Source: a virus (Duplodnaviria; Heunggongvirae; Uroviricota; Caudoviricetes). From it: a stretch of DNA of 21,415 bases. This document shows, piece after piece, positions 4,912 to 20,329 of the stretch (the stretch's first letter is position 1; every line of letters begins with the position of its first letter). The stretch is taken from positions 1-21,415 of IMG/VR virus record IMGVR_UViG_2778261463_000013; one strand, given 5' to 3'. Both the position numbers and the translations under genes were made by a program. The notes below the pieces were generated by a model that was not told the DNA's origin, made no database searches, and worked only from the letters and a program-made list of their open reading frames with translations.

Positions 4912-6051
4912 TTAATCCTCCTCTTCCCCTGCATCCTTGTCTTCAGCCTGCGCTGACAGTGCTTTTATGTCCTCCCGGTACCAGTCCGGCGCGTCATGGT
5001 CATATGTGGCAAAGCTGATATTCTCAATCAGTGCGCACTTACCATGGTCCTCAACCACATAGCAGTCGTTAACGGACTGATAGATGGCGATACGGTTGTA
5101 TTCGGGCTCATCCTTCATGAGACGACGCATGGACCCCTTCTGCCAGTAAACCGACAGGTTGCTGAATGAGGTGATGAGCATTGACTGAGCCGGGAAAAAT
5201 GGCGCAAGGTACACATCAAGGCCGCCAATGGTCCGCGTTGACACAATGAGCTGTCCGGCAAGCAGTTCGGCATTCGCATTCTGCATGCTGATACTGTTCA
5301 GGACCGGCAGGCGCAGGGAGTTAAAGAGGTTTCGCCCCATGATGACAACGAGGTCGTCTGCGTCCTTGTGCCATTCGTCAAGCAGGGATGAGCGTGCATC
5401 CTGGACCAGTGCATCGGGATTGGCGTATCTGCCTGTGTATGCCACCGAATTGTCCATATTGCGCGCAGTCAGCATCACGTCTTTCATGACGCGTTGCGGG
5501 GCCTGGTCCCTGATATCCTGCAGCCACCCCTTATTGACGTCCTCAAGTCGCGGGTGTTTTTTTATATCCGAGACTTCCGCATGGTGCGTACCGTTAAAAC
5601 CTGTCATGATGCGATCAAGTGCCACCTGTCTGGCAATCTGGCGACTCACACGCAGCTGGAAGTCAGGGTGTCCGGCCCACATGTCAAGCTGAGGGTAGGA
5701 GATGAAGGTGTCGTAGTTCACCTGCTCGCACTCATAGCGTCGCGCTTTCATGTCCACCACATTCAGCGGGTTACGACGATTTGTACCGTCATAACTGCTG
5801 TTCGTGCGCGCAACCGGCCCGGTGGTGTCCAGGAGTACCTTTTCACCTTTCTGCTCTGTCACACCAATGCTGTTGGCTTTCTGAAGAAAATCATGGCTTT
5901 CCTTTGATGCGTTTTCAAATCTCTGCTGCACTGCCGGCTGTACCGAAAAGCGGGAGGAGAGCGCAGATATTGTGATGTTATTCATCTCCGCCTGTTGTGC
6001 CTGGTAAGCAAAAAGCTCGGCCCGCGCGGCATCGCTCATGATCAGATTCAT
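4912..6051 (-). CDS. N: Major capsid protein, P2 gpN-like
   Basis: 379-aa ORF; motifs such as ...VLLDTTGPVA..., ...YECEQVNYD..., ...MTGFNG..., ...DYVVEDHG... resemble P2 N as recalled; AAGAGGTGA SD upstream of the ATG at 6051. Confidence 0.9.
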   Translation of the reverse strand: MNLIMSDAARAELFAYQAQQAEMNNITISALSSRFSVQPAVQQRFENASKESHDFLQKANSIGVTEQKGEKVLLDTTGPVARTNSSYDGTNRRNPLNVVDMKARRYECEQVNYDTFISYPQLDMWAGHPDFQLRVSRQIARQVALDRIMTGFNGTHHAEVSDIKKHPRLEDVNKGWLQDIRDQAPQRVMKDVMLTARNMDNSVAYTGRYANPDALVQDARSSLLDEWHKDADDLVVIMGRNLFNSLRLPVLNSISMQNANAELLAGQLIVSTRTIGGLDVYLAPFFPAQSMLITSFSNLSVYWQKGSMRRLMKDEPEYNRIAIYQSVNDCYVVEDHGKCALIENISFATYDHDAPDWYREDIKALSAQAEDKDAGEEED

Positions 6052-6079
6052 CGGTTATCACCTCTTGTGGTTATTTCTG

Positions 6080-6916
6080 TCAGTAGTCAGCCAGTTGTCT
6101 GGACTGCCCGCCGGTTGCCGTAAAACGACTTTCCTGATCAGCGTCCAGTCCGCGCAGTCTGTTTTTCAGCTCTGCCAGCTCAGTGGACAGGGTGGCGATT
6201 TTCTGTCTGTCTGCCTGATGGCGCGATTCCAGTGCACTGAAGCGGTCGAGAAGGTCGGCATGCGATGAGGCTATCCCCTCAACGGCGTCATGAATGCGGG
6301 AGAACCGGGTGTCGTCAGCCCTGCGTCCTCGCCCAATCATGTTCATCACGCGGTTAAGCCACTGCGCACCTTCCTCGCTGCGGCGCTCCGTCAGTTCGAT
6401 CACTTCAGCCTCAATGGCGTCAGAGAACATCGGTGCTTCCGTCTGCTGATTATTGAAGGTCATGACCGAACGGCGCTGCTGCAGGGCGAACTGAAGACGC
6501 TCCGTGCCGATGCTTGCCGGGGTGTCTGTCATGGCAAGGCCAATAAGATACGGGGTGCCCGTAGGGGTGAAATTTCGTGCCAGCTCAATACTGGAGTAAA
6601 TTTTCTTACCCCGGGAGACCAGATTTTTCATGCGGTCGGTGGGTTCGATTTCCGCATACAGCGCAGTACGACCGACCAGCGGACCTTCGGTGATTTCTTC
6701 TGTGCTCAGTGCCGTCACATCACCCATGGCGGAAAATTCACTGGACGGAACCGGTGAAAGCCAGTGCTCCACGTTCACGCGTGCGCCGTAAATCTCAGGG
6801 TTGAAGTTACTGGCCGCCGCGCGCAAATCTGCGGCACTGATTTCGCGACCGTCTGCGGTGGGACCGGAAACGGCCACGCGGAATGTTTTACGGGATGTTT
6901 TTTTCTGTTCAGGCAT
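6080..6916 (-). CDS. O: Capsid scaffolding protein, P2 gpO-like
   Basis: Internal ATG at 6916 (MPEQKKTSRKTFRVAVSGPTADGREISAADL...) with GAGGG SD; matches the P2 O N-terminus pattern (FRIGVEGDTCDGRVISAQDI...) as recalled; the track's upstream extension to 7057 is unlikely. Confidence 0.85.
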   Translation of the reverse strand: MPEQKKTSRKTFRVAVSGPTADGREISAADLRAAASNFNPEIYGARVNVEHWLSPVPSSEFSAMGDVTALSTEEITEGPLVGRTALYAEIEPTDRMKNLVSRGKKIYSSIELARNFTPTGTPYLIGLAMTDTPASIGTERLQFALQQRRSVMTFNNQQTEAPMFSDAIEAEVIELTERRSEEGAQWLNRVMNMIGRGRRADDTRFSRIHDAVEGIASSHADLLDRFSALESRHQADRQKIATLSTELAELKNRLRGLDADQESRFTATGGQSRQLADY

Positions 6917-9943: not shown

Positions 9944-10654
9944 TTAACGAAGTGCTGATGGCGCTCGCTTTTTCAGGTGATTAGCGATGTGCTTTTTCAT
10001 GTGCATAACAACATCGCCCCAGGCTTCTTCGCTGGGTTTATTGATAAATACGCGAACAGAAATATCGTCTTCCACCCGGACTCTCAGAGACACCCGTTCC
10101 GCATCTACTGAATATAATTCAAGTGCAATAACCACGCTTACCGGGTAGCTGCTGTCAGATGACTTAACCCAGGTTCGCACGGCCATGCGGAAAATATTGT
10201 CTGGTGCAGATGCGATATTGTGGACTGAAAGAGGACTAAAATCCGCCGCTGTCTTACATGGCAAGCCTGTCTCCACGTAGCGGTGCAGGTCGCCATCATC
10301 GTCTTCCCAGTACATGGATGGAAGCCCCAGCCATTCTTCATAGAAATCAATCAGCCTTGCCGCTTCATCCCGCAAAATTTGAGCTGCCTCAGCGCGTTTT
10401 TCTTCAGCTTCACGATTGATCTGGCATAAATCATTAAAGTGGCTCATGACATTATCCTCTTTTGAGTTGATGCCTGCCGCTATTCTGACTTTGCCCGGGT
10501 TCTCCTGCAAGCTGGTTATTCCTTCAGATAATTTCACAACATCTCCAACCTTGTAGCCATCATCGCCGGGCGGATGCTTACGCAACCCCGCAACTCTGAC
10601 GACATATTCTCGCTGCCTCAGTGCGATTTTGACGGCCTTATCTTTCACCCCCAT
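9944..10654 (-). CDS. Hypothetical protein (~236 aa from ATG 10654; alternative 167-aa product from internal ATG 10447), stand-alone unit in the Q-A accessory hotspot
   Basis: Long minus-strand ORF; ATG at 10654 has no clear SD, while internal ATG at 10447 is preceded by a strong AAGAGGA SD with 7-nt spacing; N-terminal ~70 aa have an AbrB/looped-hinge-like residue pattern (weak impression); no recognised homolog. Confidence 0.5.
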   Translation of the reverse strand: MGVKDKAVKIALRQREYVVRVAGLRKHPPGDDGYKVGDVVKLSEGITSLQENPGKVRIAAGINSKEDNVMSHFNDLCQINREAEEKRAEAAQILRDEAARLIDFYEEWLGLPSMYWEDDDGDLHRYVETGLPCKTAADFSPLSVHNIASAPDNIFRMAVRTWVKSSDSSYPVSVVIALELYSVDAERVSLRVRVEDDISVRVFINKPSEEAWGDVVMHMKKHIANHLKKRAPSALR

Positions 10655-10707
10655 CAAATCAAGCTTTTACGTCTTTTTTACGCTCAGCGTGAGAAATACA
10701 GCCATTC

Positions 10708-10725
10708 TGTTGTGTCGCTGCAACA
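10708..10725. promoter_or_regulatory. Dyad TGTTG-N8-CAACA (satisfies TGT-N12-ACA) resembling the late-promoter element at 2980-3003 but with a shorter spacer
   Basis: Shares TGTTGT..TCGCTG..CAACATC with the D/FI' dyad; function and orientation not established. Confidence 0.3.
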
Positions 10726-10872
10726 TCGTTCAGGGAATGCTATTTACCCCCTGAAACGCGGGCTGTTCCCCCGTCACCTGCGCGCAGAAAAAGGCCTTTT
10801 TTCGTGCACGCACGGATCCCCGACGGATCCAGACGCCACACGGGCCGGAAGGGCAAAAAGTCGTTCAAAAAA

Positions 10873-10902
10873 ATTGTGCAAATTTGTGCACTATTGTGCA
10901 TT
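10873..10902. repeat. Three direct repeats of (A/T)TTGTGCA at exact 10-bp phasing
   Basis: aTTGTGCAaa tTTGTGCAct aTTGTGCAtt read directly; helical phasing suggests an operator or protein-binding array. Confidence 0.45.
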
Positions 10903-10907
10903 GAAAT

Positions 10908-10935
10908 AAACGCCCTGGAGGAGGGCGTTTTGCTC
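10908..10935. terminator. Bidirectional intrinsic terminator after the A-linked operon
   Basis: 9-bp GC-rich stem AAACGCCCT/AGGGCGTTT with GGAGG loop, T-rich on both flanks; immediately downstream of the stop at 10938-10940. Confidence 0.6.
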
Positions 10936-10937
10936 AT

Positions 10938-11339
10938 CTATTTATAGCCTTGCCCCTTACTGGCCAGCGCCCTGATGGCAGGGCGTGCCAACACCATATT
11001 TTGGCAATGATGAATTGCCCGGCAAAATTCATCTCTACCCATTGGATGCTCAACTGGCAATGTAAAATACAGGTTCCATGCATCGCCTAAAAGTTGGGCT
11101 ATCTTTTGTTCTTCAGATGTCAGCAAGCGGTACTCCCCATCCTTGATGTAGTCACTTGTGCCATCGACCTGCTGTTCTGCAATGTGGAAAGCACCTATTG
11201 GTTTTGCTTCCAGCGATGCCAAAGCAATCCGTGCCAGTTTTTCCGCTTCTTCGGCTGGCAGTACAACGTTGCTACCAGGTCCGTATGTTTCGCGCCACTG
11301 CCTGATTGTCAGTAGTCGCTCTTTGGTTATAGTGGTCAT
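10938..11339 (-). CDS. Hypothetical protein (133 aa), last gene of the A-linked coupled string
   Basis: ATG overlaps the upstream stop (ATGA at 11336-11339); followed by a terminator. Confidence 0.55.
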   Translation of the reverse strand: MTTITKERLLTIRQWRETYGPGSNVVLPAEEAEKLARIALASLEAKPIGAFHIAEQQVDGTSDYIKDGEYRLLTSEEQKIAQLLGDAWNLYFTLPVEHPMGRDEFCRAIHHCQNMVLARPAIRALASKGQGYK

Positions 11340-11545
11340 TTGTTAATCCTCAAAACTTTATGCCCGGGCGCAAAAGCACGAGTTTTGTCTTTGCTTATTC
11401 GCCAGCCATCCTTACGCGCCTCTTTTGCACAGCCAGTCCATGACGTACCGATATATTCACCGAAGTCTGGCGTTTGATATTTACCATTTGTACACTGGCG
11501 ACAATCACAATAGAGATGCATGGTGTAACTTGCGGCAATAGCCAT
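11336..11545 (-). CDS. Hypothetical small Cys-rich (zinc-ribbon-like) protein, 69 aa
   Basis: AAGGAG SD 6-7 nt upstream of the ATG at 11545; YCDCRQC...GC Cys pattern. Confidence 0.55.
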   Translation of the reverse strand: MAIAASYTMHLYCDCRQCTNGKYQTPDFGEYIGTSWTGCAKEARKDGWRISKDKTRAFAPGHKVLRINK

Positions 11546-11546
11546 A

Positions 11547-11861
11547 TCAGTCTCCTTTGATGCCAGTGTTTACAACCTGACAAGCCTCTTTGAGCACCCA
11601 GTCAACAGCGTCTTGCCATGCTCCGGTTTCGACTGGCGGATTCTCACGCTTTACCAGTTCATAGAAACGTACTGCTCTAACCAGTCCATCTGACGGTTTT
11701 GCCTGTAGTGCAGCCTGAGCTATGCGGTATACCTGGAGCATACAGGCGTCGTTGATATCCATTCCGAATGGAATATCTGATGACTGAGATTCCACATCTT
11801 CCAGCCTGGCAATTTCTTTACGTAAGAAGCCTTTCAGTTCCTGCTTCTGTTTCCTGTTCAT
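11547..11861 (-). CDS. Hypothetical protein (104 aa)
   Basis: ATG at 11861 preceded by GAAGGA SD; the track start at 11876 is TTG; 1-nt gap to the next gene. Confidence 0.5.
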   Translation of the reverse strand: MNRKQKQELKGFLRKEIARLEDVESQSSDIPFGMDINDACMLQVYRIAQAALQAKPSDGLVRAVRFYELVKRENPPVETGAWQDAVDWVLKEACQVVNTGIKGD

Positions 11862-11872
11862 ATATTTTTCCT

Positions 11873-12067
11873 TCAAAGTTCGGTTCGCTGACAGGGTTTC
11901 TCTTTACGGCAGACAATGACGCTTCCTTTGCTCGAGTCGGTGATTGTTACCGTGCCGTCATCACACTGGACAATGACAACGGTGTTGCTCTTTTTCGCTA
12001 CGCAGTTCGGCGTGGCTGATTGTGCGAATGGCGCGAAAAACAGCAGAAAAAGTAATATTCTGCTCAC
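11873..12067 (-). CDS. Hypothetical small secreted protein (64 aa): predicted Sec signal peptide plus ~43-aa mature part with 4 Cys
   Basis: GTG at 12067 preceded by GGGAGGA SD (8-nt spacing) and overlapping the upstream stop (GTGA); N-terminus SRILLFLLFFAPFAQSA is signal-peptide-like; the track's ATG at 12244 would overlap the upstream gene out of frame. Confidence 0.4.
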   Translation of the reverse strand: MSRILLFLLFFAPFAQSATPNCVAKKSNTVVIVQCDDGTVTITDSSKGSVIVCRKEKPCQRTEL

Positions 12068-12495
12068 TGTTGTTTCCTCCCGTTCTGTGCTGGTCTGGCG
12101 AATGAATTGCGTTGTGGTGAAAAGACCATTCGCGCCAGCGCGGCCTTGTGATTGACTGTGTTCAGTGTTCTGGCCAGTCCGCCGTTGTGCCTGCGTGTCC
12201 GCTCTTCGTGATATCTCTGCATGATTTTCCCGGCAGGCGTGCACGGCTCCGGTTCCTCCGGCGAACGGCGCGGACGAATGACGACAGTCCAGCTATGGCT
12301 CTCGCTGCCCGGCCGCCTGTTGAGTATGTCGGCGATGGTGGTCTCCGTGGTGCGATCGGGGCTGACTATCGTGATTTCCAGCTCGTCGCCCGGTTGTGGC
12401 CTTGTGGCAGGCCTGAACAGTGTCAGCACCGGCATACGCTGGCGCATGATGGCCTCAAACTGTGGGCGCTGCATGGTGCAGCAAAATCGCGTCAT
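12064..12495 (-). CDS. Hypothetical protein (143 aa), translationally coupled to A
   Basis: ATG overlaps the A stop codon (ATGA at 12492-12495); Pro/Arg-rich; no recognised homolog. Confidence 0.45.
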   Translation of the reverse strand: MTRFCCTMQRPQFEAIMRQRMPVLTLFRPATRPQPGDELEITIVSPDRTTETTIADILNRRPGSESHSWTVVIRPRRSPEEPEPCTPAGKIMQRYHEERTRRHNGGLARTLNTVNHKAALARMVFSPQRNSFARPAQNGRKQQ

Positions 12496-15002
12496 GCTCC
12501 CGCCTCCACTGGCTGCTCTGTGATGATGTGACGGGCTGACTCATCCCAGTACGCTGTTCCCCCGTTATCCAGACGCACACGGGCACCGTTACGCACGGAG
12601 ATGATGGCCGCGTCAGGCAACTGCACACCCAGCGCATCAAGTTCGCGGGCGATTTGCGTGTCCGTCGCGGTATCCGCAGGCACGACAATCCCCACCCTTA
12701 CAGGGGTGTCAGATGCCGGTGTGGTGTCGTTTTGTCCGGTTTTTGCGCCCGACGGCTGATTTTTAATCTGATTACGCAGTTTTCTCCGATCGCCCCTGCT
12801 TAACGTATTCAGCCAGCTTTCCAGGTTCTCTTCGGGAAGCGTCAGTCGTCCGGGGTCCTGCCTGTTTTCTGGTCCGTGATTGTCTGTTTTTTCATCCCGG
12901 GGACAGTTATTGCCACGAGTCCAAGGGGCGACGGGGTCGCCCTGAAGGTCAAAACCCTCGCCCGTGCGGTTGTCTGGTGTTGTTTCTTTTTTAACCAGTT
13001 TCCACTCGTCCGGATGGGTGCATATGGTGTACCGCTCTCCGAGCGACGGGGCGCAGATTCCGTAGATACGTTGAGGGAATTCACCGTAGTCGTTGGCTTC
13101 GTCTGCGGTTTCGTATGCGGTGCGGACCAGATACTGGTTGCGCGGAATGAGCACACCACCCTGTTTCATGATGTAGGTGGCAAAACATCCCACATCTGCG
13201 GCAGCCATAATGGCGTCAATATCGTCATGATCGAGGTGCTTCGGTGATGCCGGGTTGCGCTCCATCTGGCTTGCAAGGCGGCGGAGTTCACGCCATACCT
13301 GGCGGGGCGGAATGCCGAAAAACTGGAACTGACGGATGCGGTGAAGGCTTGCCCAGGCAATGGCGTTCTCCACGGTTTCCGCCATGGTTTTCCCGGATTC
13401 CTCATCAACGTAAGGTTTTCCGGTTTTCGGATCATTGTTGTGGAAAGCGCTGGCGTCCAGGTTCTTACCGATATAGGTTGCGATATAGCTTGCCGGTGTG
13501 CCTTTTTCCGGGTCTATCTTCTCGCATTTAAAGCGCGGTGAAATATCGTCCCCCAGTTCGTGGCGATCTGATTTAATTGCTGCTTCGCGCATAATTTCGA
13601 TGATGCGCTCTGCGTTCTCCGGGGAAGTGAATACCAGCATATGCCAGTGTGGCGTGCCGTCATGGTGTGGCTCAGCGGTTCGCACGCCGTACCAGCCCAG
13701 CCCCTCTTTTTTTATTTTTTTTCTTACGGCTGCGAAGAAGTCGTAAACCAGATAATCACTGGCATCTCGTACTGTGGCACCGTTGTATTTCGGGTTCAGG
13801 CTGCCGTTCTCGTTCACGCTGTGAAAGCGGGAAGGGGTGGTTACTGTGATGAAGAATGCGACGTCAGCCCGTAATTCGGCCACCATCTCCATCCCTCTGA
13901 CGCAGACCATCATTTCATTGCGGCGGTTGCGTGGATTACCCAGGCCAGCCCAGTACACGTCCTCCAGACTCAGGCGCTCGCCGTCTTCGTTTTCAATATC
14001 CCAGCTTTTGAGAAAGTCACGGGTGCGCTGGCGCTTCTCGCGGAACTCCAGTAGTGACTCATGGCTGATATAGGGGGATTGTTTACGTGACACTCTGCCG
14101 GCGGCGCGCAGTAACTCCTCCCGCCAGAGATCGGCGACGTGGCGTAACTGGTTGTTCCACCAGGTCGCGCAGGTGATGCGCAGTACCGCACCCGGAACCC
14201 GTTCAGGGTCCGGCGGTGTGCGTCGGTTGTGCCTGATTTCGAGTTCCGGCCAGTATGGCGGGACCACGCCCAGAATTAAGGCTGTGCGTGCCACCTTCTG
14301 GTAGGCCAGCAGCCAGATAACCGGGCTGTCATTATCCTTGCCTGTCCGTTCAAGAACTTCATCACATATGCGTTCAAATTCTGCGGCGAATGCCTGGGCT
14401 GTCAGTGTGGCGATGCGCTGGATTTCGTCACGGGTGAGTTGCGGCAGTGTGAGCAGTTCTTCAAGGCGATGGCGCACGACGGTGGTTTTGAATGCCGGCG
14501 TTGCAAAGCGGTCGTTAACCCTTTCAATACGTTTCAGGCGCGCACGCAGTCCACGGCGAACGAAATTATCGGCCACGTATGCGCTGTTGTTTTTTACACC
14601 TTCACTGCGGGCACTTTGCTGTTTCCGGTTCAGTCGTGCCAGATCACGGATCAACACACTGGCAAGAAACGAGGGCAGGGTGCGAAGTTCGGCTATCGCC
14701 TCCGATACCGCCGTTGGCGGATTTTCGCGTCTGTGTCGTGCCAGCTTATCCAGCCTTATCTGCCGCTCTTCGTCCCGGTGAAGGTGTGAATTAATTTGCT
14801 TACCTTTGTCCGTGGTTGTCAGGAAGGCCACGGTTTCTTCATCCAGCCGGGCCTCAGTGCGAATGTCTTCGGTGAGGTAGTCACGGATTGCCCGTTGTAA
14901 TGCGGTTGGCTTCTGCGGTAATGCTCTGCCGAATGTCTCAGGATCAATAACCGGCAGCGGGGCGTTCCACGGGTACGCCAGGTGCGTGTGGTGATGGCTC
15001 AT
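12492..15002 (-). CDS. A: Replication initiation endonuclease (rolling-circle HUH family), P2 gpA-like
   Basis: 836-aa ORF; HUH motif region ...HHDGTPHWHMLVF...; GGGGAG SD 8 nt upstream of the ATG at 15002. Confidence 0.9.
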   Translation of the reverse strand: MSHHHTHLAYPWNAPLPVIDPETFGRALPQKPTALQRAIRDYLTEDIRTEARLDEETVAFLTTTDKGKQINSHLHRDEERQIRLDKLARHRRENPPTAVSEAIAELRTLPSFLASVLIRDLARLNRKQQSARSEGVKNNSAYVADNFVRRGLRARLKRIERVNDRFATPAFKTTVVRHRLEELLTLPQLTRDEIQRIATLTAQAFAAEFERICDEVLERTGKDNDSPVIWLLAYQKVARTALILGVVPPYWPELEIRHNRRTPPDPERVPGAVLRITCATWWNNQLRHVADLWREELLRAAGRVSRKQSPYISHESLLEFREKRQRTRDFLKSWDIENEDGERLSLEDVYWAGLGNPRNRRNEMMVCVRGMEMVAELRADVAFFITVTTPSRFHSVNENGSLNPKYNGATVRDASDYLVYDFFAAVRKKIKKEGLGWYGVRTAEPHHDGTPHWHMLVFTSPENAERIIEIMREAAIKSDRHELGDDISPRFKCEKIDPEKGTPASYIATYIGKNLDASAFHNNDPKTGKPYVDEESGKTMAETVENAIAWASLHRIRQFQFFGIPPRQVWRELRRLASQMERNPASPKHLDHDDIDAIMAAADVGCFATYIMKQGGVLIPRNQYLVRTAYETADEANDYGEFPQRIYGICAPSLGERYTICTHPDEWKLVKKETTPDNRTGEGFDLQGDPVAPWTRGNNCPRDEKTDNHGPENRQDPGRLTLPEENLESWLNTLSRGDRRKLRNQIKNQPSGAKTGQNDTTPASDTPVRVGIVVPADTATDTQIARELDALGVQLPDAAIISVRNGARVRLDNGGTAYWDESARHIITEQPVEAGA

Positions 15003-15007
15003 TCCGC

Positions 15008-15421
15008 TTACTCCCCTGCTGTTGCCTTCTCAAATGCAGCCCGGTACAGCACAAGAAGGCGCTGGTATTCAGCGATAAAGTCTTCTGCTGTTTTAATCCC
15101 TTTCACGACCACGCTGTGGGTGGTCATTTCCAGAACGAGCACCATTTCTGACGATGACCAGCTGATAACGCTGCTGTCGCACCCGTTGATGTGGAACAGG
15201 CCCAGCACCATGCTGTGGTTCTGGTCTCTGACATCCACGCGGTAACGGTCATCAACGGTGAAGGAAAAATTCCCGTATGTGGTGGCGCTGCTGGCGGCCT
15301 GTTTACAGGCGCGGCGGTAATAGTCATGCAGGTCATTGAGACGGGAAGCGAGGCGTGGATCCACCGCCCACATCCAGTTAAAAAAATCCTGAATATCTGA
15401 AAGTCCCTTAACGCTCTTCAT
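15008..15421 (-). CDS. Hypothetical early-region protein (137 aa) immediately upstream of A
   Basis: GGAGG SD 6 nt upstream of the ATG at 15421; position equivalent to P2 orf80-83. Confidence 0.6.
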   Translation of the reverse strand: MKSVKGLSDIQDFFNWMWAVDPRLASRLNDLHDYYRRACKQAASSATTYGNFSFTVDDRYRVDVRDQNHSMVLGLFHINGCDSSVISWSSSEMVLVLEMTTHSVVVKGIKTAEDFIAEYQRLLVLYRAAFEKATAGE

Positions 15422-15489
15422 GAGAACCTCCGGAAACGGACGTGCGGAAGCCTCCCGCGTACGGGGGCGGGATGGCTCCGGGATGTTGA

Positions 15490-15717
15490 TTAGTGGTGGT
15501 AGTGCTGGTTAATGAGGTCCTGCAGCTTGCGCAGGTCATCCGCCAGGTAGCTGAATACAGCGGCGGAATACATGTTTGACAGTGCGTGGCTGCGCTCATG
15601 CAGCATATTGATGTGCATGATATGCGCGACGCGGAATGCGCGGGAAAGTCTGCGGTTGATTTCAGTCTGGATGTGACGACGCGCAGCGTATGCGCGCTGT
15701 TGTTTGCGGTTTGCCAT
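15490..15717 (-). CDS. Hypothetical small basic protein (75 aa)
   Basis: AGAGG SD about 10 nt upstream of the ATG at 15717; overlapping 207-aa track ORF in another frame judged spurious. Confidence 0.55.
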   Translation of the reverse strand: MANRKQQRAYAARRHIQTEINRRLSRAFRVAHIMHINMLHERSHALSNMYSAAVFSYLADDLRKLQDLINQHYHH

Positions 15718-15724
15718 GGTGTTT

Positions 15725-15960
15725 GGCCTCTTCGTTTGTGAGTTTTTGGATACTCACCATCCAGAGGTTGCAATTCTGGGTGGCGAGACGTACAGGGTTG
15801 CAACCACCGGCAAACGAAGAAACCGGCCCGACCGAAGTCGGCCCCGTACGCCCCACCATAATTCTGGTGCGAAAAAGACGTGGCGATACGGTACGCACAA
15901 AAAAACCGCTGGCGCGGTTGTGCGCTTCGTTTGTCAGCGGGGGTTGCAATCCCGGCACCC
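15725..15960. promoter_or_regulatory. Repeat-rich non-coding region: three GGTTGCAA(Y) sites, one a perfect 10-bp palindrome GGTTGCAACC, plus three copies of CTTCGTTTG
   Basis: GGTTGCAA at 15766, 15796 and 15942; CTTCGTTTG at 15730 and 15925 (direct) and 15811-15819 (inverted); no convincing ORF. Confidence 0.4.
15899..15925 (-). terminator. Possible minus-strand intrinsic terminator downstream of the multi-HTH gene
   Basis: On the minus strand, stem AACCGC/GCGGTT with 4-nt loop followed by T7; stem is short so strength is uncertain. Confidence 0.35.
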
Positions 15961-16040
15961 GTTTTATGAGGTGCAGCGGAAATGTAACCTGACTGATTGC
16001 GGCATGGCAAGCGGTTTTTTTGTGTGTGCATAGTGGTTAC

Positions 16041-16595
16041 TCAGTCCGGTAGCAGTTCGCAAAGCACGGTGTCAGCGGCGGTATATCGTGCGTAAAGCCG
16101 GGCGAGGACCCATCTTTTAAGGGATATCCCGGTCGTGTCCCGGATGTACTTTCTGATTTCGCTGAATGTCATCCCCTGTTCATCGCGCAGTTCAGTTACC
16201 AACTCCACCAGGTGATCGCTGTATCTGGCTCTGTGGTGGAGTTCCCCGTATTTCCTGAACCGGTACCCTCTTTTTCTCAGGTTCAGTCCCACCGTGGATG
16301 TCGAGCGCCCCAGTTCATTCGCGAGTTCCCGGATGGTTTTTGTGTGGCGATTCCTGATGAGCGTGTTGAGTTCTTTTGTATTCAGGGGGGGGTGTTTGGT
16401 GTGGATAACCCCCTGAGAGAGCAAAAGACGGATGCGGCTTCGTATTGCTGGCCCGGTTCTCTGAAAGTGTTTTGTCAGTTCTGGTACGGTGTGGGAGGGG
16501 TATAAACCGACCAGTAGAGCATCTTCCTGTTGTGTCCAGGCTCTGACATGCTTCGGTGGTACACCTGATACACCCATAGGTTTAAGTGCGGGCAT
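16041..16595 (-). CDS. Predicted DNA-binding protein with three HTH-like segments (184 aa)
   Basis: ATG at 16595 with GGAGA SD; segments ...TVPELTKHFQRTGPAIRSRIR..., ...TIRELANELGRSTSTVGLNLRKRG..., ...TFSEIRKYIRDTTGISLKRWV... fit HTH patterns, reminiscent of paired HTH domains of transposase N-termini or GcrA/Myb-like regulators. Confidence 0.55.
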   Translation of the reverse strand: MPALKPMGVSGVPPKHVRAWTQQEDALLVGLYPSHTVPELTKHFQRTGPAIRSRIRLLLSQGVIHTKHPPLNTKELNTLIRNRHTKTIRELANELGRSTSTVGLNLRKRGYRFRKYGELHHRARYSDHLVELVTELRDEQGMTFSEIRKYIRDTTGISLKRWVLARLYARYTAADTVLCELLPD

Positions 16596-16829
16596 AGTTG
16601 TTCTCCGTTGTTCTGTTTTGTGTCGGGGTAATGGTCCGGTTTTTTCGCCTTCAACCGGAAAAGAAGGGCGTGTTAGCATTGATGAATCCGCCGTTCAGTG
16701 GATCTGGCGGACACTTTGTTCAACACGCCCGGGGGTAAAGATGTCTGGCTGCAAAAATTCCACGAGCCAGGTTACCCTGCACTCTGCGCTGATTAGGGGC
16801 AGAGCGATGACGATGAGGGATAAAACACC

Positions 16830-17312
16830 ATGCAAAACAACCAACGTAAAAAATCGAGAGAACGGGATGAGGTCATGTTCCGTCTCTGGTACAGCTACTG
16901 GCTGGAGCGCATCGCGGCGGTGTTCAATCGTCGCCTTGATGCGATCATCAACATTTTGATCCTTGCGGCGGGTGCGTTCATCGTAGCCGGCTGGCATTTC
17001 GGCTGGGTGCTGGGGGCAGTGGTGGTGGTTCTCGGAGCCTGTAATTTCATATGTCGTTTCGGGCAACGTGCGCAGGCGGCGAGTGAGCATGCCCATCGCT
17101 ACAATGAGTTGATTACCAAAAGCGCCCTCCTCAGTACGGAAGCTCTGCTGGCACGCCTTCCAGAGCTTGAGATGCATGACTCTCCTGTCCTGGAATGCAT
17201 GGAAAATGTGGCGTACAACAAAGCCTGTATGTCTCTGAATATCAGTCATCGTGAATCTCTCTCTTTCGCTGAAAAGATGATGGCTGCCATTACGATCGGT
17301 TTGTCCCGATAA
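16830..17312 (+). CDS. Hypothetical membrane protein (160 aa), lone plus-strand gene inside the minus-strand early region
   Basis: GAGGGA SD upstream of the ATG at 16830; hydrophobic stretch IINILILAAGAFIVAGWHFGWVLGAVVVVLGA; overlapping minus-strand 211-aa ORF judged spurious. Confidence 0.5.
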   Translation: MQNNQRKKSRERDEVMFRLWYSYWLERIAAVFNRRLDAIINILILAAGAFIVAGWHFGWVLGAVVVVLGACNFICRFGQRAQAASEHAHRYNELITKSALLSTEALLARLPELEMHDSPVLECMENVAYNKACMSLNISHRESLSFAEKMMAAITIGLSR

Positions 17313-17351
17313 GTGCCCTGCGTGTGTCATCTGACGCTCGCCATGTTCCCG

Positions 17352-17564
17352 TCAGTCGTTCGGGTTTATGACGTAATCCACGACGTTTTCCACGCGGCGG
17401 CGTAATTCCCTGTGTATCTGGCCTGGTGTTGCTGGTTCGCCCGGTTGCCCCAGGCCTGCCACAAAATCGTCGATTTCACTCATAAGCAGGTTGCGCATTA
17501 CGGCGATATGGTGACGCGCCTCTTTGCCTGGTCTGCGTGCGTTGGTATCGTGTTTGCTGCTCAT
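17352..17564 (-). CDS. Hypothetical protein (70 aa)
   Basis: ATG at 17564 overlaps the upstream stop (ATGA); GAGG SD upstream. Confidence 0.45.
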   Translation of the reverse strand: MSSKHDTNARRPGKEARHHIAVMRNLLMSEIDDFVAGLGQPGEPATPGQIHRELRRRVENVVDYVINPND

Positions 17565-17770
17565 GTTCTTACCTCGCTTATTATCTCGAGTTCGCGCCAT
17601 GACTCTGTCAGGACGGTTATCTGTGACCCGTCCGTCAGGTGGACGTAAATCAGTTCGTCACCTGCCGGGCATCGGGTGGTGGTGGCTATGACACTGCTTT
17701 CCACTTCGTATTCCATCCCGGATGTATCGGTAAAAAGCGTTTTATTGCGTCTTCTCAGAATTGCAGTCAT
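17561..17770 (-). CDS. Hypothetical protein (69 aa)
   Basis: GAGGG SD 8 nt upstream of the ATG at 17770. Confidence 0.5.
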   Translation of the reverse strand: MTAILRRRNKTLFTDTSGMEYEVESSVIATTTRCPAGDELIYVHLTDGSQITVLTESWRELEIISEVRT

Positions 17771-19362: not shown

Positions 19363-19884
19363 TTAGCCGGGCTGGTTGTTTTTGAGTTGCTCCAGTTTTG
19401 AAACTCTGGGGGAGTAAACCTGCTTACCTTTAACGGTCTGGCAGTCCTCCTTGTTTGCCGGTGAAAACTTTCTTTTCTTGCGGTCGTACGTCCAGTAGCT
19501 TTTCCAGTTGTGCCACTCTGGCGGTTCGCACTCCAGTAGTTCGTCGGCTAGTTCGTCCCAGGCTTTGGCGTTAAACCACCATGTACCGTCTGACTTTTCA
19601 TCTTCGGGATTTGAGCGCGTTTTGTGACCCGGCATCTGCCCGCGCTGAATGGCGGCGCGTAGCGCAGATTTTGTTACCCCCAGATAGGCAGCCCCTTTTT
19701 CCAGTGACACAAGTCCTGCGACTGGGCCGTCCAGTCGTAGGGTTGCGCCCTTTTTGTAGGACGGTCTGGTTTTGGTTTCCAGGTGTTCGTTGTCGTTGGC
19801 AGCTTCAATGAATTCATTGTCCGCGCCATCATCCTGAACCGGTTGAGCGCCAGATAACTCTTTGTCGGCAATAATCTCCCGCAT
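19363..19884 (-). CDS. Cox/AlpA-like excisionase-family HTH protein with extended termini (173 aa), divergent from C
   Basis: AGAGGA SD 8 nt upstream of the ATG at 19884; central region ...AYLGVTKSALRAAIQRGQMPG...GTWWFNAKAWDEL resembles the P2 Cox / AlpA HTH pattern; position as in P2. Confidence 0.55.
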   Translation of the reverse strand: MREIIADKELSGAQPVQDDGADNEFIEAANDNEHLETKTRPSYKKGATLRLDGPVAGLVSLEKGAAYLGVTKSALRAAIQRGQMPGHKTRSNPEDEKSDGTWWFNAKAWDELADELLECEPPEWHNWKSYWTYDRKKRKFSPANKEDCQTVKGKQVYSPRVSKLEQLKNNQPG

Positions 19885-19987: not shown

Positions 19988-20329
19988 ATGAGTATCTTGT
20001 CAATAGACTATGCGAAAAAGTTGCGTTTGATACGCAAGACGGAAGGGCTAACTCAAAAGCAATTTGCTGATATTACAGGGTTATCTCTGGCAACTGTCAG
20101 GAATTATGAGTCAGGGCAAAAGATCGCCAGAGCAAAGATTGTTGAGGCCGTCCTTCAAGTGGATCGGTTTGAAAAATATATGTTCTGGTTAATCAAAGAT
20201 AAGACGCTACCTGTTGCCGGTCAGATCGCCCCGGCTCTCTCTCTTGATGGCTCCACGCAGTCGGAGGACGATCAGGTTTCAACCCGCAATACCCAAAAAT
20301 CACCCCAATCAGGCCGCAATGCTGGCTGA
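19988..20329 (+). CDS. C: Immunity repressor, P2 C-like (HTH)
   Basis: 113-aa ORF, AGGAGA SD; HTH segment LTQKQFADITGLSLATVRNYESG; C-terminal GQIAPALSLDG...SPQSGRNAG resembles the P2 C C-terminus as recalled. Confidence 0.8.
   Translation: MSILSIDYAKKLRLIRKTEGLTQKQFADITGLSLATVRNYESGQKIARAKIVEAVLQVDRFEKYMFWLIKDKTLPVAGQIAPALSLDGSTQSEDDQVSTRNTQKSPQSGRNAG

Follow-up and report, generated by a model that had tools for sequence, protein, structure and literature searches.

Three neighbours in the early region of a P88-like prophage: an isrK-type RNA switch, an optional triple-HTH gene and an opposite-strand SLATT-like membrane protein gene

Introduction

Do a DNA-binding protein gene and a divergent membrane protein gene that lie side by side in the early region of a P2-like prophage belong together? 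The question is raised by a stretch of 21,415 nucleotides (IMG/VR record IMGVR_UViG_2778261463_000013; hereafter the window), which is a P88-like (Xuanwuvirus, P2 family) Escherichia coli prophage adjoined by dmsA. A first-pass annotation, made from the sequence alone, had read positions 15899–17330 as an inserted two-gene cassette in which a multi-HTH regulator, followed by its own terminator, is paired with a membrane effector of prophage exclusion or abortive infection.

Results

The HTH and membrane protein genes assort independently

The two protein-coding genes of the proposed cassette are as follows.
16041–16595, minus strand: gene for a triple-HTH (Myb/homeodomain-like) DNA-binding protein of 184 aa (WP_077248670, "DNA-binding protein" in RefSeq)
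16830–17312, plus strand: gene for a SLATT-like two-TM membrane protein of 160 aa (WP_029399959 in RefSeq), the core of an autonomous module that runs in the lysogeny direction

The two ORFs are as first described: a minus-strand ORF with HTH-like segments in three separate regions, and a lone plus-strand ORF with two hydrophobic segments that is divergent from it and convergent with an early ORF of 82 aa (17352–17600). In the 184-aa protein the Pfam matches, all weak, are to HTH_20 (about residues 35–65), HTH_24/HTH_38 (about 76–102) and HTH_32 (about 121–164). A profile of 17 homologues searched against the PDB found the tandem-HTH structure 2lvs (E 1.4e-5), the N-terminal HTHs of Mos1 transposase (E 9e-4) and, more weakly, B-Myb (E 0.03). 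The protein also matches phrog_323 ("transcriptional regulator, D5-like", E 5e-27) and is basic, with 31 Lys/Arg against 17 Asp/Glu. Its identity with the B-type replication protein of P2, which the first-pass annotation had allowed for, is not borne out: of 50,697 phage records searched with tblastn, 91 matched (Vibrio 87, Citrobacter 1, Stx-converting 2, Pantoea 1), no P2 record being reported among them, and when the annotated GpB of Yersinia phage vB_YenM_42.18 was compared by BLASTP, only 30 residues aligned, at 23.5 bits, which is no meaningful similarity.

We considered whether the HTH protein could be a dedicated regulator or antitoxin-like partner of the membrane protein, the pair having entered as one cassette for exclusion or abortive infection. 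The genes are adjacent and divergent in the window and again in the diverged loci L008 and L015 (HTH proteins 46–48% and membrane proteins 62% identical), and the intergenic block that separates the two genes shows good conservation. Each gene is nevertheless found without the other, and all four combinations occur: HTH gene only (Shae_phiSM, L009–L014), membrane gene only (L004, L006, L016–L018, the lambdoid loci L019–L023 and all IMG/VR loci bearing phage markers except L024 and L025), both, and neither, as in P88 itself. Among 34 IMG/VR loci the HTH gene adjoins the membrane gene in only L024 and L025, which carry the window allele, and the conserved intergenic block persists in L006, where there is no HTH gene. 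Homologues of the HTH protein with 48–87% identity occupy the equivalent operon position with or without the SLATT-like gene, and no promoter or terminator of its own was found for the HTH gene within the early operon. We regard a co-inserted cassette as highly improbable. Judged by matches and distribution, the 184-aa ORF encodes a genuine DNA-binding protein with three HTHs and is an optional early-operon gene that is independent of the membrane gene.

The hairpin beyond the HTH gene belongs to an isrK-like RNA

The hairpin that had been assigned to the HTH gene as its terminator is part of an isrK-like sRNA. This RNA has a promoter of its own and opens a series of elements that extends beyond the interval originally described.
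15981–16010, minus strand: promoter of the isrK-like sRNA, TTGCCA-N18-TACATT
15899–15974, minus strand: isrK-like sRNA including an intrinsic terminator (stem 15904–15919 plus T-run); Rfam RF01394, 61.9 bits against a gathering score of 50
15776–15863, minus strand: C4-type antisense RNA, just outside the original interval and missed there; Rfam RF01695, 79.3 bits against a gathering score of 45
15490–15717, minus strand: gene for a P4-epsilon-like derepression (antirepressor) protein of 75 aa; PF25738, 28.2 bits against a cut-off of 27, and phrog_3688, E 1.5e-41

The promoter, the sole sigma-70-like site found in 15700–17500, is situated downstream of the HTH stop codon and upstream of the sRNA. 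Its last base precedes the start of the Rfam isrK match by 7 nt, and the terminator was detected independently of that match. Downstream of these tandem Rfam matches stands the antirepressor gene, and short boxes are repeated or complementary across the module (ACAAACGAAG/CTTCGTTTG and TTGCAACC). The C4 RNA contains CTTCGTTTG (15819–15811), the complement of a 10-mer that occurs in isrK and at the Shine-Dalgarno of the next gene, where the box ACAAACGAAG at 15739–15730 overlaps the Shine-Dalgarno of the epsilon-like gene. RNA duplex energies compared with shuffled sequences were unconvincing (z about −1.3 to −2.4), and the case for the module therefore rests on the exact repeated boxes. All Xuanwuvirus-type loci scanned with Rfam contain isrK, C4 and the epsilon-like gene, irrespective of what stands upstream, and the module is conserved in the six relatives scanned. 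An ORF of 207 aa across the sRNAs, which gene calls in relatives suggested might be Pfam Phage_ASH, gave no match to that family. By these features of the sequence, the isrK-C4-antirepressor series is a conserved control module like those known from phage P1 (immI) and Gifsy-1 (isrK), and the 75-aa epsilon-like protein is its presumed target. We conclude that 15899–17330 is made up of three independent units, chance neighbours at a place where the early region of this P88-like prophage is variable.

The plus-strand ORF encodes a two-TM membrane protein

The membrane gene is overlapped on the other strand by a longer ORF.
16695–17330, minus strand: shadow ORF of 211 aa antisense to the SLATT-like gene, judged not to be a gene

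Differences among homologues concentrate at the third codon position of the plus-strand frame (for example 35/18/85 at positions 1/2/3), which marks the plus strand as the coding one. Position 3 of the 211-aa frame corresponds to plus-strand position 1, far less variable than plus-strand position 3, and amino acid differences are much higher in the 211-aa frame (for example 93 versus 48); it was rejected as a gene, and it has no PHROG, PADLOC or NCBIfam match. The plus-strand ORF matches phrog_6315 (E 1.3e-65), and its substitution pattern indicates a real gene under purifying selection. At this locus the wrong strand is annotated in at least one published phage genome.

The hydrophobic segments of the protein span about residues 37–54 and 59–75 with a 4-residue turn between them, and the N-terminal cytoplasmic segment that precedes this hairpin carries 9 Lys/Arg. 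A single-sequence AF2 model was poor (pLDDT 62) and was replaced by one built on a 90-sequence alignment, which reached a pLDDT of 95.9 and a pTM of 0.87 with helices at 2–52, 58–75, 77–99, 103–114, 122–135 and 146–155. The protein is accordingly predicted to be an inner-membrane protein with a cytoplasmic N terminus, a tight two-TM hairpin and a cytoplasmic helical C-terminal domain.

A word-indexed protein search returned few relatives even with a profile, and an exhaustive HMMER search was used instead, yielding 107 cluster representatives among 1.84 billion proteins. With tblastn against the 50,697 phage records the protein matched only two entries, both of one Yersinia phage, and single distant relatives used as queries found nothing in IMG/VR.

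The membrane protein remotely resembles SLATT effectors

In the AF2 model and the hydrophobic segments we recognize the SLATT architecture, a two-TM hairpin with flanking helices in a small protein. At the level of sequence, the window protein reaches NCBIfam SLATT_1 with an E of 0.006 and 16.5 bits against a cut-off of 41, and lies under the curated cut-off of every SLATT model. Its relatives come closer: SLATT_4 is matched by 26 of the 90 (best 8.6e-7) and SLATT_1 by 5 of the 90, and every other NCBIfam family that was matched at all was matched by one relative only, so that none recurs. The Pfam SLATT models were matched by 0 of the 90 at E ≤ 0.01, and ten mid-distance relatives compared with NCBIfam gave nothing informative. 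The best fold neighbours among the viral proteins of BFVD are annotated SLATT proteins (probability 1.00, TM 0.63; 9 of the top 30), at weak E-values (5.6e-3) and in a kind of search in which helical hairpins match readily; no solved SLATT structure was found for comparison. Taken together, sequence and modeled fold suggest a remote resemblance to the SLATT pore-forming effectors.

The usual activators of SLATT effectors are a nucleotide-making enzyme or a reverse transcriptase. No CD-NTase/SMODS, SLOG or reverse-transcriptase partner stands next to the membrane gene in the window, L006, L008, L015 or L019–L023, where its flanks are ordinary phage early genes; in the IMG/VR loci neighbours were looked for with phage marker proteins only. 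In L020 a diversity-generating retroelement reverse transcriptase lies about 4 kb from the membrane gene and is not adjacent to it. PADLOC-DB 2.0.0 gave no defence-model match to the protein, the best E-values (0.013–0.04) being to unrelated models.

The membrane gene is oriented against the early genes

The membrane gene is found in P2-like and lambdoid prophages of several Enterobacterales genera, with relatives on metagenome and Polynucleobacter contigs. Among 5426 complete E. coli genomes the module is present in 34, and part of the surrounding region in 1221. In every locus where orientation could be judged, in both phage types, the gene lies on the repressor/integrase strand and against the early genes. 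It is opposite to gpA in all marker-bearing IMG/VR loci and in L004, L006, L008 and L015–L018; in the lambdoid prophages L019–L023, where identity is only 25–27%, it is the lone opposite-strand gene inside the early operons; and in Kosakonia and Brenneria it stands directly 5′ of the repressor gene on the same strand.

Two elements were recognized between the HTH and membrane genes.
16650–16679, plus strand: candidate module promoter, with −35 TTCAAC (16650–16655), an 18-nt spacer and an extended −10 TGTTAGCAT (16671–16679)
16635–16659, no strand assigned: inverted repeat TCCGGTT-N11-AACCGGA, overlapping the −35 region

The columns GTGnTAnnnT are invariant across seven aligned loci from five genera. 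Of 25 loci, 17 carry a single copy of the extended −10 motif, at −159 to −232 relative to the SLATT ATG, compared with an expectation of 0.21 copies in a shuffled region, and the candidate promoter region is conserved with or without the HTH gene. The candidate −35 matches at only 3 of 6 bases, and a promoter scan at standard stringency found no site 5′ of the membrane gene. On this pattern of conservation we propose 16650–16679 as a candidate promoter of the module. The block with the inverted repeat is kept in the window, L008, L015 and L006, the last of which is without the HTH gene, and a GCCGGG...CCCGGC repeat stands at the equivalent place in Kosakonia, Yersinia and Brenneria loci; it is possibly an operator or an RNA hairpin.

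A micro-ORF precedes the membrane gene in most relatives

A further element, also absent from the first-pass annotation, lies immediately upstream of the membrane gene.
16741–16823, plus strand: decayed remnant of a micro-ORF that precedes the SLATT-like gene and is intact in most relatives

The micro-ORF was found in 25 of the 34 IMG/VR loci and in nine other loci, and was unannotated in every record and gene-call set inspected. In relatives it encodes a peptide of 27–48 aa with the motif D-x-D-K-F-H-V-x-[RH]-K-P-A-P-x-P-E and an acidic tail, has its own Shine-Dalgarno, and stops 5–7 nt short of the SLATT ATG in enterobacterial loci and 11–16 nt short of it in the lambdoid L019–L023. Its differences are biased to third positions (for example 5/1/15), and its peptides match no Pfam or PHROG family. 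As far as gene neighbourhoods tell, the recurrent partner of the membrane gene is this micro-ORF and not the HTH protein. A polyproline stalling leader is not claimed, the motif being mostly P-x-P and not PP. A second lineage, L041–L047, is also without the micro-ORF and has the membrane gene intact, and because two E. coli lineages thus do without it, the micro-ORF appears dispensable; a role as antitoxin is unlikely on the same ground.

The state of the micro-ORF in the window raises the question of whether the whole allele is a decaying remnant in which the membrane gene is poorly expressed and the module inactive. Two inactivating lesions are present: a 1-nt deletion near 16755 puts the ATG at 16741 out of frame with the C-terminal part, and there is an in-frame TAG at 16794–16796. 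Read from the old ATG, the shifted frame stays open for 72 codons, past the start of the membrane gene, and could disturb translation of that gene. Against this, the 160-aa ORF is unbroken, with every family-conserved residue in place, a GAGG Shine-Dalgarno of its own stands about 9 nt 5′ of the ATG, the gene has likewise stayed intact in L041–L047, and the window allele is the commonest in E. coli, being that of 27 of the 34 carriers. We therefore consider an inactive remnant unlikely.

Discussion

The reading that we favor, at a probability of roughly one half, is that the locus combines three independent units, namely the isrK switch, the optional HTH gene and an autonomous opposite-strand SLATT-like module, and that the last of these acts in the lysogen in abortive infection or exclusion. 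One half of the original proposal survives in this reading: the membrane protein, SLATT-like and in anti-lytic orientation, fits an accessory gene of exclusion or abortive infection, and only its pairing with the HTH protein falls away. We accordingly treat the SLATT-like gene as a candidate prophage defence gene.

Judging from orientation, the early operon would be repressed in a lysogen and the module would therefore be transcribed from its own promoter, placing the protein in the inner membrane. On infection by another phage the protein might oligomerize as other SLATT effectors do, making the membrane leaky and causing the infection to be aborted or excluded. When the prophage itself is induced, transcription of the early operon would run antisense through the membrane gene and could shut it off, so that the prophage would avoid aborting its own growth. 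The micro-ORF carried by relatives probably has one of two roles, controlling translation of the membrane protein or providing it with a small peptide partner.

The same orientation could serve another end, with the protein acting as a membrane sensor of lysogeny or induction, as a lysogenic-conversion factor or as a modulator of lysis timing. Alignment with the repressor and integrase genes, and the place directly 5′ of the repressor in some phages, fit maintenance of lysogeny equally well; the PADLOC defence models are unmatched, and a partner sensor enzyme was not found. However, the gene is patchy in E. coli and shifts between slots and phage types, which is typical of accessory defence cargo and not of core lysogeny functions, and the characterized SLATT proteins have been described in conflict systems, as effectors or accessory parts of CBASS, DRT10, RADAR and AbiA (PMC9226505; bioRxiv 10.64898/2026.04.29.721553). 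A role outside defence thus seems to us rather doubtful.

Returning to the defence reading, we can take it one step further, and do so tentatively: the micro-ORF and the SLATT-like gene may form a self-contained prophage immunity module that has not been described before, with a membrane effector that needs no enzyme partner, translation gated by a conserved leader peptide and activity tied to the state of the prophage by antisense placement.

If stand-alone SLATT proteins do occur in many prophages, this would show that the membrane module can sense, or be controlled, by itself, aided only by a tiny peptide gene just upstream and by constant antisense placement. The candidate defence gene is compact, at about 700 bp, and easy to assay. 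The analysis also exposes gaps in annotation, in the overlooked micro-ORF and the call on the wrong strand, and corrects the reading of P88-like regions of this kind, in which the hairpin is an sRNA switch of the P1 immI/Gifsy-1 isrK type directly 5′ of the replication gene.

Comparison with known systems

The isrK-C4-antirepressor series shares its layout with isrK-orf45-anrP of Gifsy-1 and with immI (c4-icd-ant) of P1/P7: an isrK transcribed from its own promoter, a leaky terminator, a C4-type RNA and then the antirepressor gene, with short boxes that recur in the sRNA and at the Shine-Dalgarno of the target and have their complement in C4 (PMC4825925). It differs in that the antirepressor is a 75-aa P4-epsilon-like protein and not AnrP or Ant, and in its P2-like backbone, where the module lies directly 5′ of replication gene A. 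There is no overlap here between the 48-aa ORF lying across C4 and the start of the gene that follows, in contrast to orf45 and anrP. The HTH protein resembles the tandem homeodomain/Myb-like proteins (2lvs, the Mos1 N-terminal domain, PHROG 323) in its succession of short HTH units and its basic character, and departs from the 2lvs/Mos1 type in having three units rather than two, all of its matches being weak.

Temperate phages are known to carry single-gene membrane exclusion or lysogenic-conversion genes, such as rexB/sieB of lambda, sieA of P22, gp15 of HK97 and old, tin and fun of P2. Like these genes, the membrane gene is an accessory prophage gene with a small inner-membrane product that is apparently independent of the lytic programme. 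To our knowledge, every SLATT protein described so far is an effector or accessory that awaits the signal of a partner enzyme. The membrane gene occupies a place other than the cos-adjacent hotspot that Rousset et al. 2022 (PMC9122126) described for P2.

SLATT effectors include SLATT_4 in type I CBASS, SLATT_5 in DRT10/UG17 and the accessory SLATT proteins of RADAR, DRT3 and AbiA. With these the membrane protein has in common a length of about 150–200 aa, a helix-flanked two-TM hairpin and a setting in mobile elements or conflict. Unlike them, its gene stands alone with no enzyme partner, usually behind a micro-ORF of 27–48 aa and antisense to the early operons.

Distribution and strand polarity of the prophage region

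The noteworthy part of this region is its membrane gene, a stand-alone, SLATT-like and lysogeny-directed gene that is usually accompanied by a micro-ORF and is spread across prophages. The first-pass annotation had read it as one half of an inserted two-gene cassette at 15899-17330; that observation was largely right, and its interpretation as a cassette is wrong. Both ORFs exist in the orientations described and are annotated by RefSeq, one as a 184-aa 'DNA-binding protein' (the HTH protein, WP_077248670) and the other as a 160-aa 'hypothetical protein' (the membrane protein, WP_029399959).

Positions 15400-17700 match chromosomal segments in several E. coli isolates from chicken at 100% identity and ~20 further E. 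coli genomes at 97-99%. In NZ_CP128970 (RefSeq), the region is part of a prophage adjoining dmsA, with the order integrase, HTH repressor, Cox, small early genes and replication endonuclease (gpA). Among named phages, the closest are P88 and Citrobacter phage Shae_phiSM, which both belong to Xuanwuvirus (Peduoviridae). The markers placed by Pfam put the early lytic operon on the minus strand and the genes for repressor and integrase on the plus strand.

Genes and phage markers of the region
12492-15002, minus strand: gpA (Pfam, E 2e-104)
16041-16595, minus strand: triple-HTH protein gene
16695-17330, minus strand: 211-aa shadow ORF, exactly opposite the 160-aa ORF
16830-17312, plus strand: membrane gene
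19363-19884, minus strand: Cox (Pfam)
19988-20329, plus strand: C-type repressor (Pfam)

The membrane-gene module is carried by 34 of 5426 complete E. coli genomes (the window allele by 27 of those 34), whereas the surrounding region is matched in part by 1221. Because the P2 defence hotspot adjoins cos (Rousset et al. 2022, PMC9122126), the membrane gene occupies a different slot. The cos-adjacent position is window 9944-12495, the stretch separating the portal gene from gene A, which contains five minus-strand ORFs (109-237 aa; two overlap); a Pfam search gave no match for the five, and relatives carry TumE and HVO_A0114-like genes there.

The membrane and HTH genes occur separately

Comparison of window 16041-17352 with related loci (L002, L003, L006 and L009-L015) revealed a variable slot in P88-like prophages between small conserved early genes (DUF4754 and a 41-aa ORF) and the isrK promoter, filled across relatives by a Band_7 lipoprotein, Ea22-like genes, a MarR-like gene, a methyltransferase with a ParE-like gene, the HTH gene or the SLATT-like gene. 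The HTH gene is found without the membrane gene in Shae_phiSM (protein 85% identical) and in L009-L014 (52-64%). The membrane gene is found without the HTH gene in L006/L007, where it is 57% identical and directly adjoins the isrK promoter. Prophages of Yersinia, Kosakonia, Brenneria and Serratia also have it without the HTH gene, and among IMG/VR loci with markers only the window allele departs from this pattern. P88 has neither, a Band_7 lipoprotein filling the slot, and only two alleles, that of the window and a diverged one (L008/L015), carry both genes. With all four arrangements found, the inserted two-gene cassette does not hold.

The membrane protein is SLATT-like

The 160-aa protein has a basic N-terminal segment and two hydrophobic segments four residues apart. 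When four homologues were aligned by codon, differences accumulated at plus-strand position 3 (positions 1/2/3: e.g. 35/18/85 and 46/28/87), and reading in the plus frame gives far fewer amino acid differences than reading in the opposite one (e.g. 48 versus 93). The plus strand is therefore the coding one, as first proposed for this membrane protein, and the 211-aa minus-strand ORF was rejected as a gene. In Yersinia phage vB_YenM_42.18, the annotated ORF (gp08) is the shadow strand opposite the SLATT-like gene (L004 3788-4453).

An exhaustive HMMER search yielded 107 cluster representatives of 150-170 aa. The AlphaFold2 model, built from a 90-sequence alignment (pLDDT 95.9, pTM 0.87), begins with a long N-terminal helix that continues as TM1, turns tightly into TM2 and ends in four more helices. 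The window protein matches NCBIfam SLATT_1 weakly and below cut-off (E 0.006); among 90 relatives, 26 match SLATT_4 (best 8.6e-7) and 5 match SLATT_1, no other NCBIfam family being matched by more than one. The Pfam SLATT models were matched by none of the 90 at E <= 0.01, and a PDB search returned nothing similar. Among predicted viral structures, the best fold matches are annotated giant-virus SLATT proteins (probability 1.00, TM 0.63, E 5.6e-3), and annotated SLATT proteins make up 9 of the top 30. We conclude that this is a predicted two-TM protein remotely like SLATT and a possible member of that superfamily.

SLATT proteins are predicted pore-forming effectors or accessories of CBASS, DRT10/UG17, RADAR, DRT3 and AbiA (PMC9226505; bioRxiv 10.64898/2026.04.29.721553; PMC11381338). 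The inspected gene maps contain no nucleotide cyclase near the membrane gene, and their sole reverse transcriptase, ~4 kb off in L020, comes from a diversity-generating retroelement. This lambdoid prophage with a distant SLATT-like gene carries the retroelement next to its integrase (508-2245 and 1718-1905), recognized by an RT-15 RNA (136 bits), a bAvd gene and the reverse transcriptase gene.

Orientation and probable role of the membrane gene

In every locus with placeable phage markers (the window, L001, L004, L006, L008, L015-L018 and all marker-bearing IMG/VR loci), the membrane gene lies on the repressor/integrase strand, opposite gpA and the early genes. The repressor gene immediately follows the membrane gene in Kosakonia and Brenneria. 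Relatives of only 25-27% identity occur in lambdoid prophages (S24 repressor, Cro and O/DnaB-type replication genes), again as the lone opposite-strand gene within the leftward early operon. Six or more distinct backbones or insertion slots thus share this orientation, a recurrence that chance would hardly produce and that suggests expression in the lysogen. Upon prophage induction, convergent early transcription would then silence the gene.

The most likely role of the membrane gene is abortive infection or exclusion, to which we give a probability of about one half from family resemblance and genomic logic. The exclusion role envisaged in the first-pass annotation is thus kept as a likely reading for a SLATT-like, lysogeny-directed gene, and its pairing with the HTH regulator is given up because the two genes occur separately.

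A candidate promoter and a micro-ORF precede the membrane gene

An extended -10 motif, TGnTAnnnT, lies ~60-75 nt upstream of the micro-ORF and shows no variation among seven loci representing five genera. Of 25 loci, 17 contain a single copy at a consistent spacing; the expectation per shuffled region is 0.21.

Candidate promoter elements
16635-16659: conserved inverted repeat, overlapped by a weak candidate -35 (TTCAAC)
16671-16679, plus strand: candidate extended -10, TGTTAGCAT, from TGnTAnnnT conservation

A standard promoter scan of 15700-17500 did not pick up this site, and we therefore only infer it to be the promoter of the membrane module.

In most relatives the membrane gene is preceded by a micro-ORF that has a Shine-Dalgarno sequence of its own; the encoded peptide (27-48 aa) combines a conserved motif (…D-K-F-H-V-x-R/H-K-P-A-P-x-P-E…) with an acidic tail. 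The micro-ORF occurs in 25 of 34 IMG/VR loci and nine other loci, distant lambdoid ones included, and its stop lies 5-7 nt before the membrane-gene ATG in enterobacterial loci and 11-16 nt before it in lambdoid loci (L019-L023). Substitutions favor the third position (e.g. 5/1/15) and synonymous codon changes are frequent, which indicates that it is translated. The peptides matched no Pfam or PHROG family, and the micro-ORF is annotated in none of the inspected records and gene-call sets.

In the window the micro-ORF is decayed: a 1-nt deletion near 16755 puts the ATG at 16741 out of frame with the remainder, an in-frame TAG stands at 16794-16796, and the P-A-P-x-P-E motif has disappeared. In L041-L047, a second E. 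coli lineage, the micro-ORF is absent altogether and the membrane gene is intact. The micro-ORF is thus frequent but dispensable, which counts against an essential antitoxin and argues for a putative translational leader or accessory peptide. The frameshift leaves the old ATG opening a 72-codon frame (16741-16959, plus strand) that spans the ribosome-binding site and first 43 SLATT-like codons in another frame and might interfere with their translation.

The HTH protein and the isrK–C4–antirepressor module

The three HTH-like segments first noted in the 184-aa protein correspond to weak HTH matches in three separate regions. The protein matches PHROG 323 ('transcriptional regulator, D5-like', E 5e-27), and a profile from 17 homologues finds 2lvs, a protein with tandem HTHs (E 1.4e-5), Mos1 transposase at its N-terminal HTH pair (E 9e-4) and, at lower significance, B-Myb (E 0.03). 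A tblastn search of 50,697 phage records matched 91 (87 Vibrio phages, 1 Citrobacter phage, 2 Stx-converting phages and 1 Pantoea phage), with no P2 record reported among them, and the protein has no similarity to an annotated GpB; these results speak against the P2 B-type replication protein, the alternative originally raised. A full-length homologue (~36% identity) occurs at L005 4001-4549, ~8 kb from the left end of a Mu-like prophage inside the Stx1a-converting phage LC727895, making the family common to P2-like and Mu-like early regions. The gene is read within the early operon, without signals of its own, and is an optional early gene for a putative DNA-binding protein.

Directly downstream, Rfam identifies two minus-strand RNA genes.

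RNA features downstream of the HTH gene
15776-15863, minus strand: C4 antisense RNA (Rfam, 79.3 bits; threshold 45)
15899-15974, minus strand: isrK sRNA (Rfam, 61.9 bits; threshold 50)
15904-15919, minus strand: isrK terminator (hairpin and T-run), within the isrK match
16010-15981, minus strand: isrK sigma-70 promoter, TTGCCA-N18-TACATT, located past the HTH stop codon and ahead of isrK

The isrK promoter is the sole promoter-like site found by the standard scan in 15700-17500, and the hairpin formerly assigned to the HTH gene is the isrK terminator. The isrK–C4–epsilon unit was found in all Xuanwuvirus-type loci scanned with Rfam, regardless of the upstream genes, so the first 76 bases of 15899-17330 are part of a conserved module of known type rather than of the HTH gene. 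Neither the sRNA nor the HTH part is unusual in the P88-like group. A long shadow ORF of 207 aa, with no match in a Pfam search, crosses both RNAs (15408-16031, minus strand); in the E. coli assemblies of L011-L014 there is a 205-aa gene call over the sRNA region (~5547-6164), labeled Phage_ASH (weak) in three of the four loci.

The complete switch (15490-16010, minus strand) lies directly upstream of a 137-aa ORF and replication gene A. Since early-operon transcripts must read past the isrK terminator to reach gene A, it may gate replication as well as the antirepressor. A 75-aa P4-epsilon-like 'derepression' protein is encoded downstream of isrK/C4 (PF25738). The 10-mer ACAAACGAAG has two sites, 15934-15925 within isrK and 15739-15730, where it overlies the Shine-Dalgarno sequence of the epsilon-like gene, and its complement sits in C4 (15819-15811); a second box, TTGCAACC, is common to all three. 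The P1 immI operon has the same logic. The module likewise resembles the Gifsy-1 isrK–orf45–anrP locus, where a short sRNA activates antirepressor translation on its own read-through transcript (PMC4825925).
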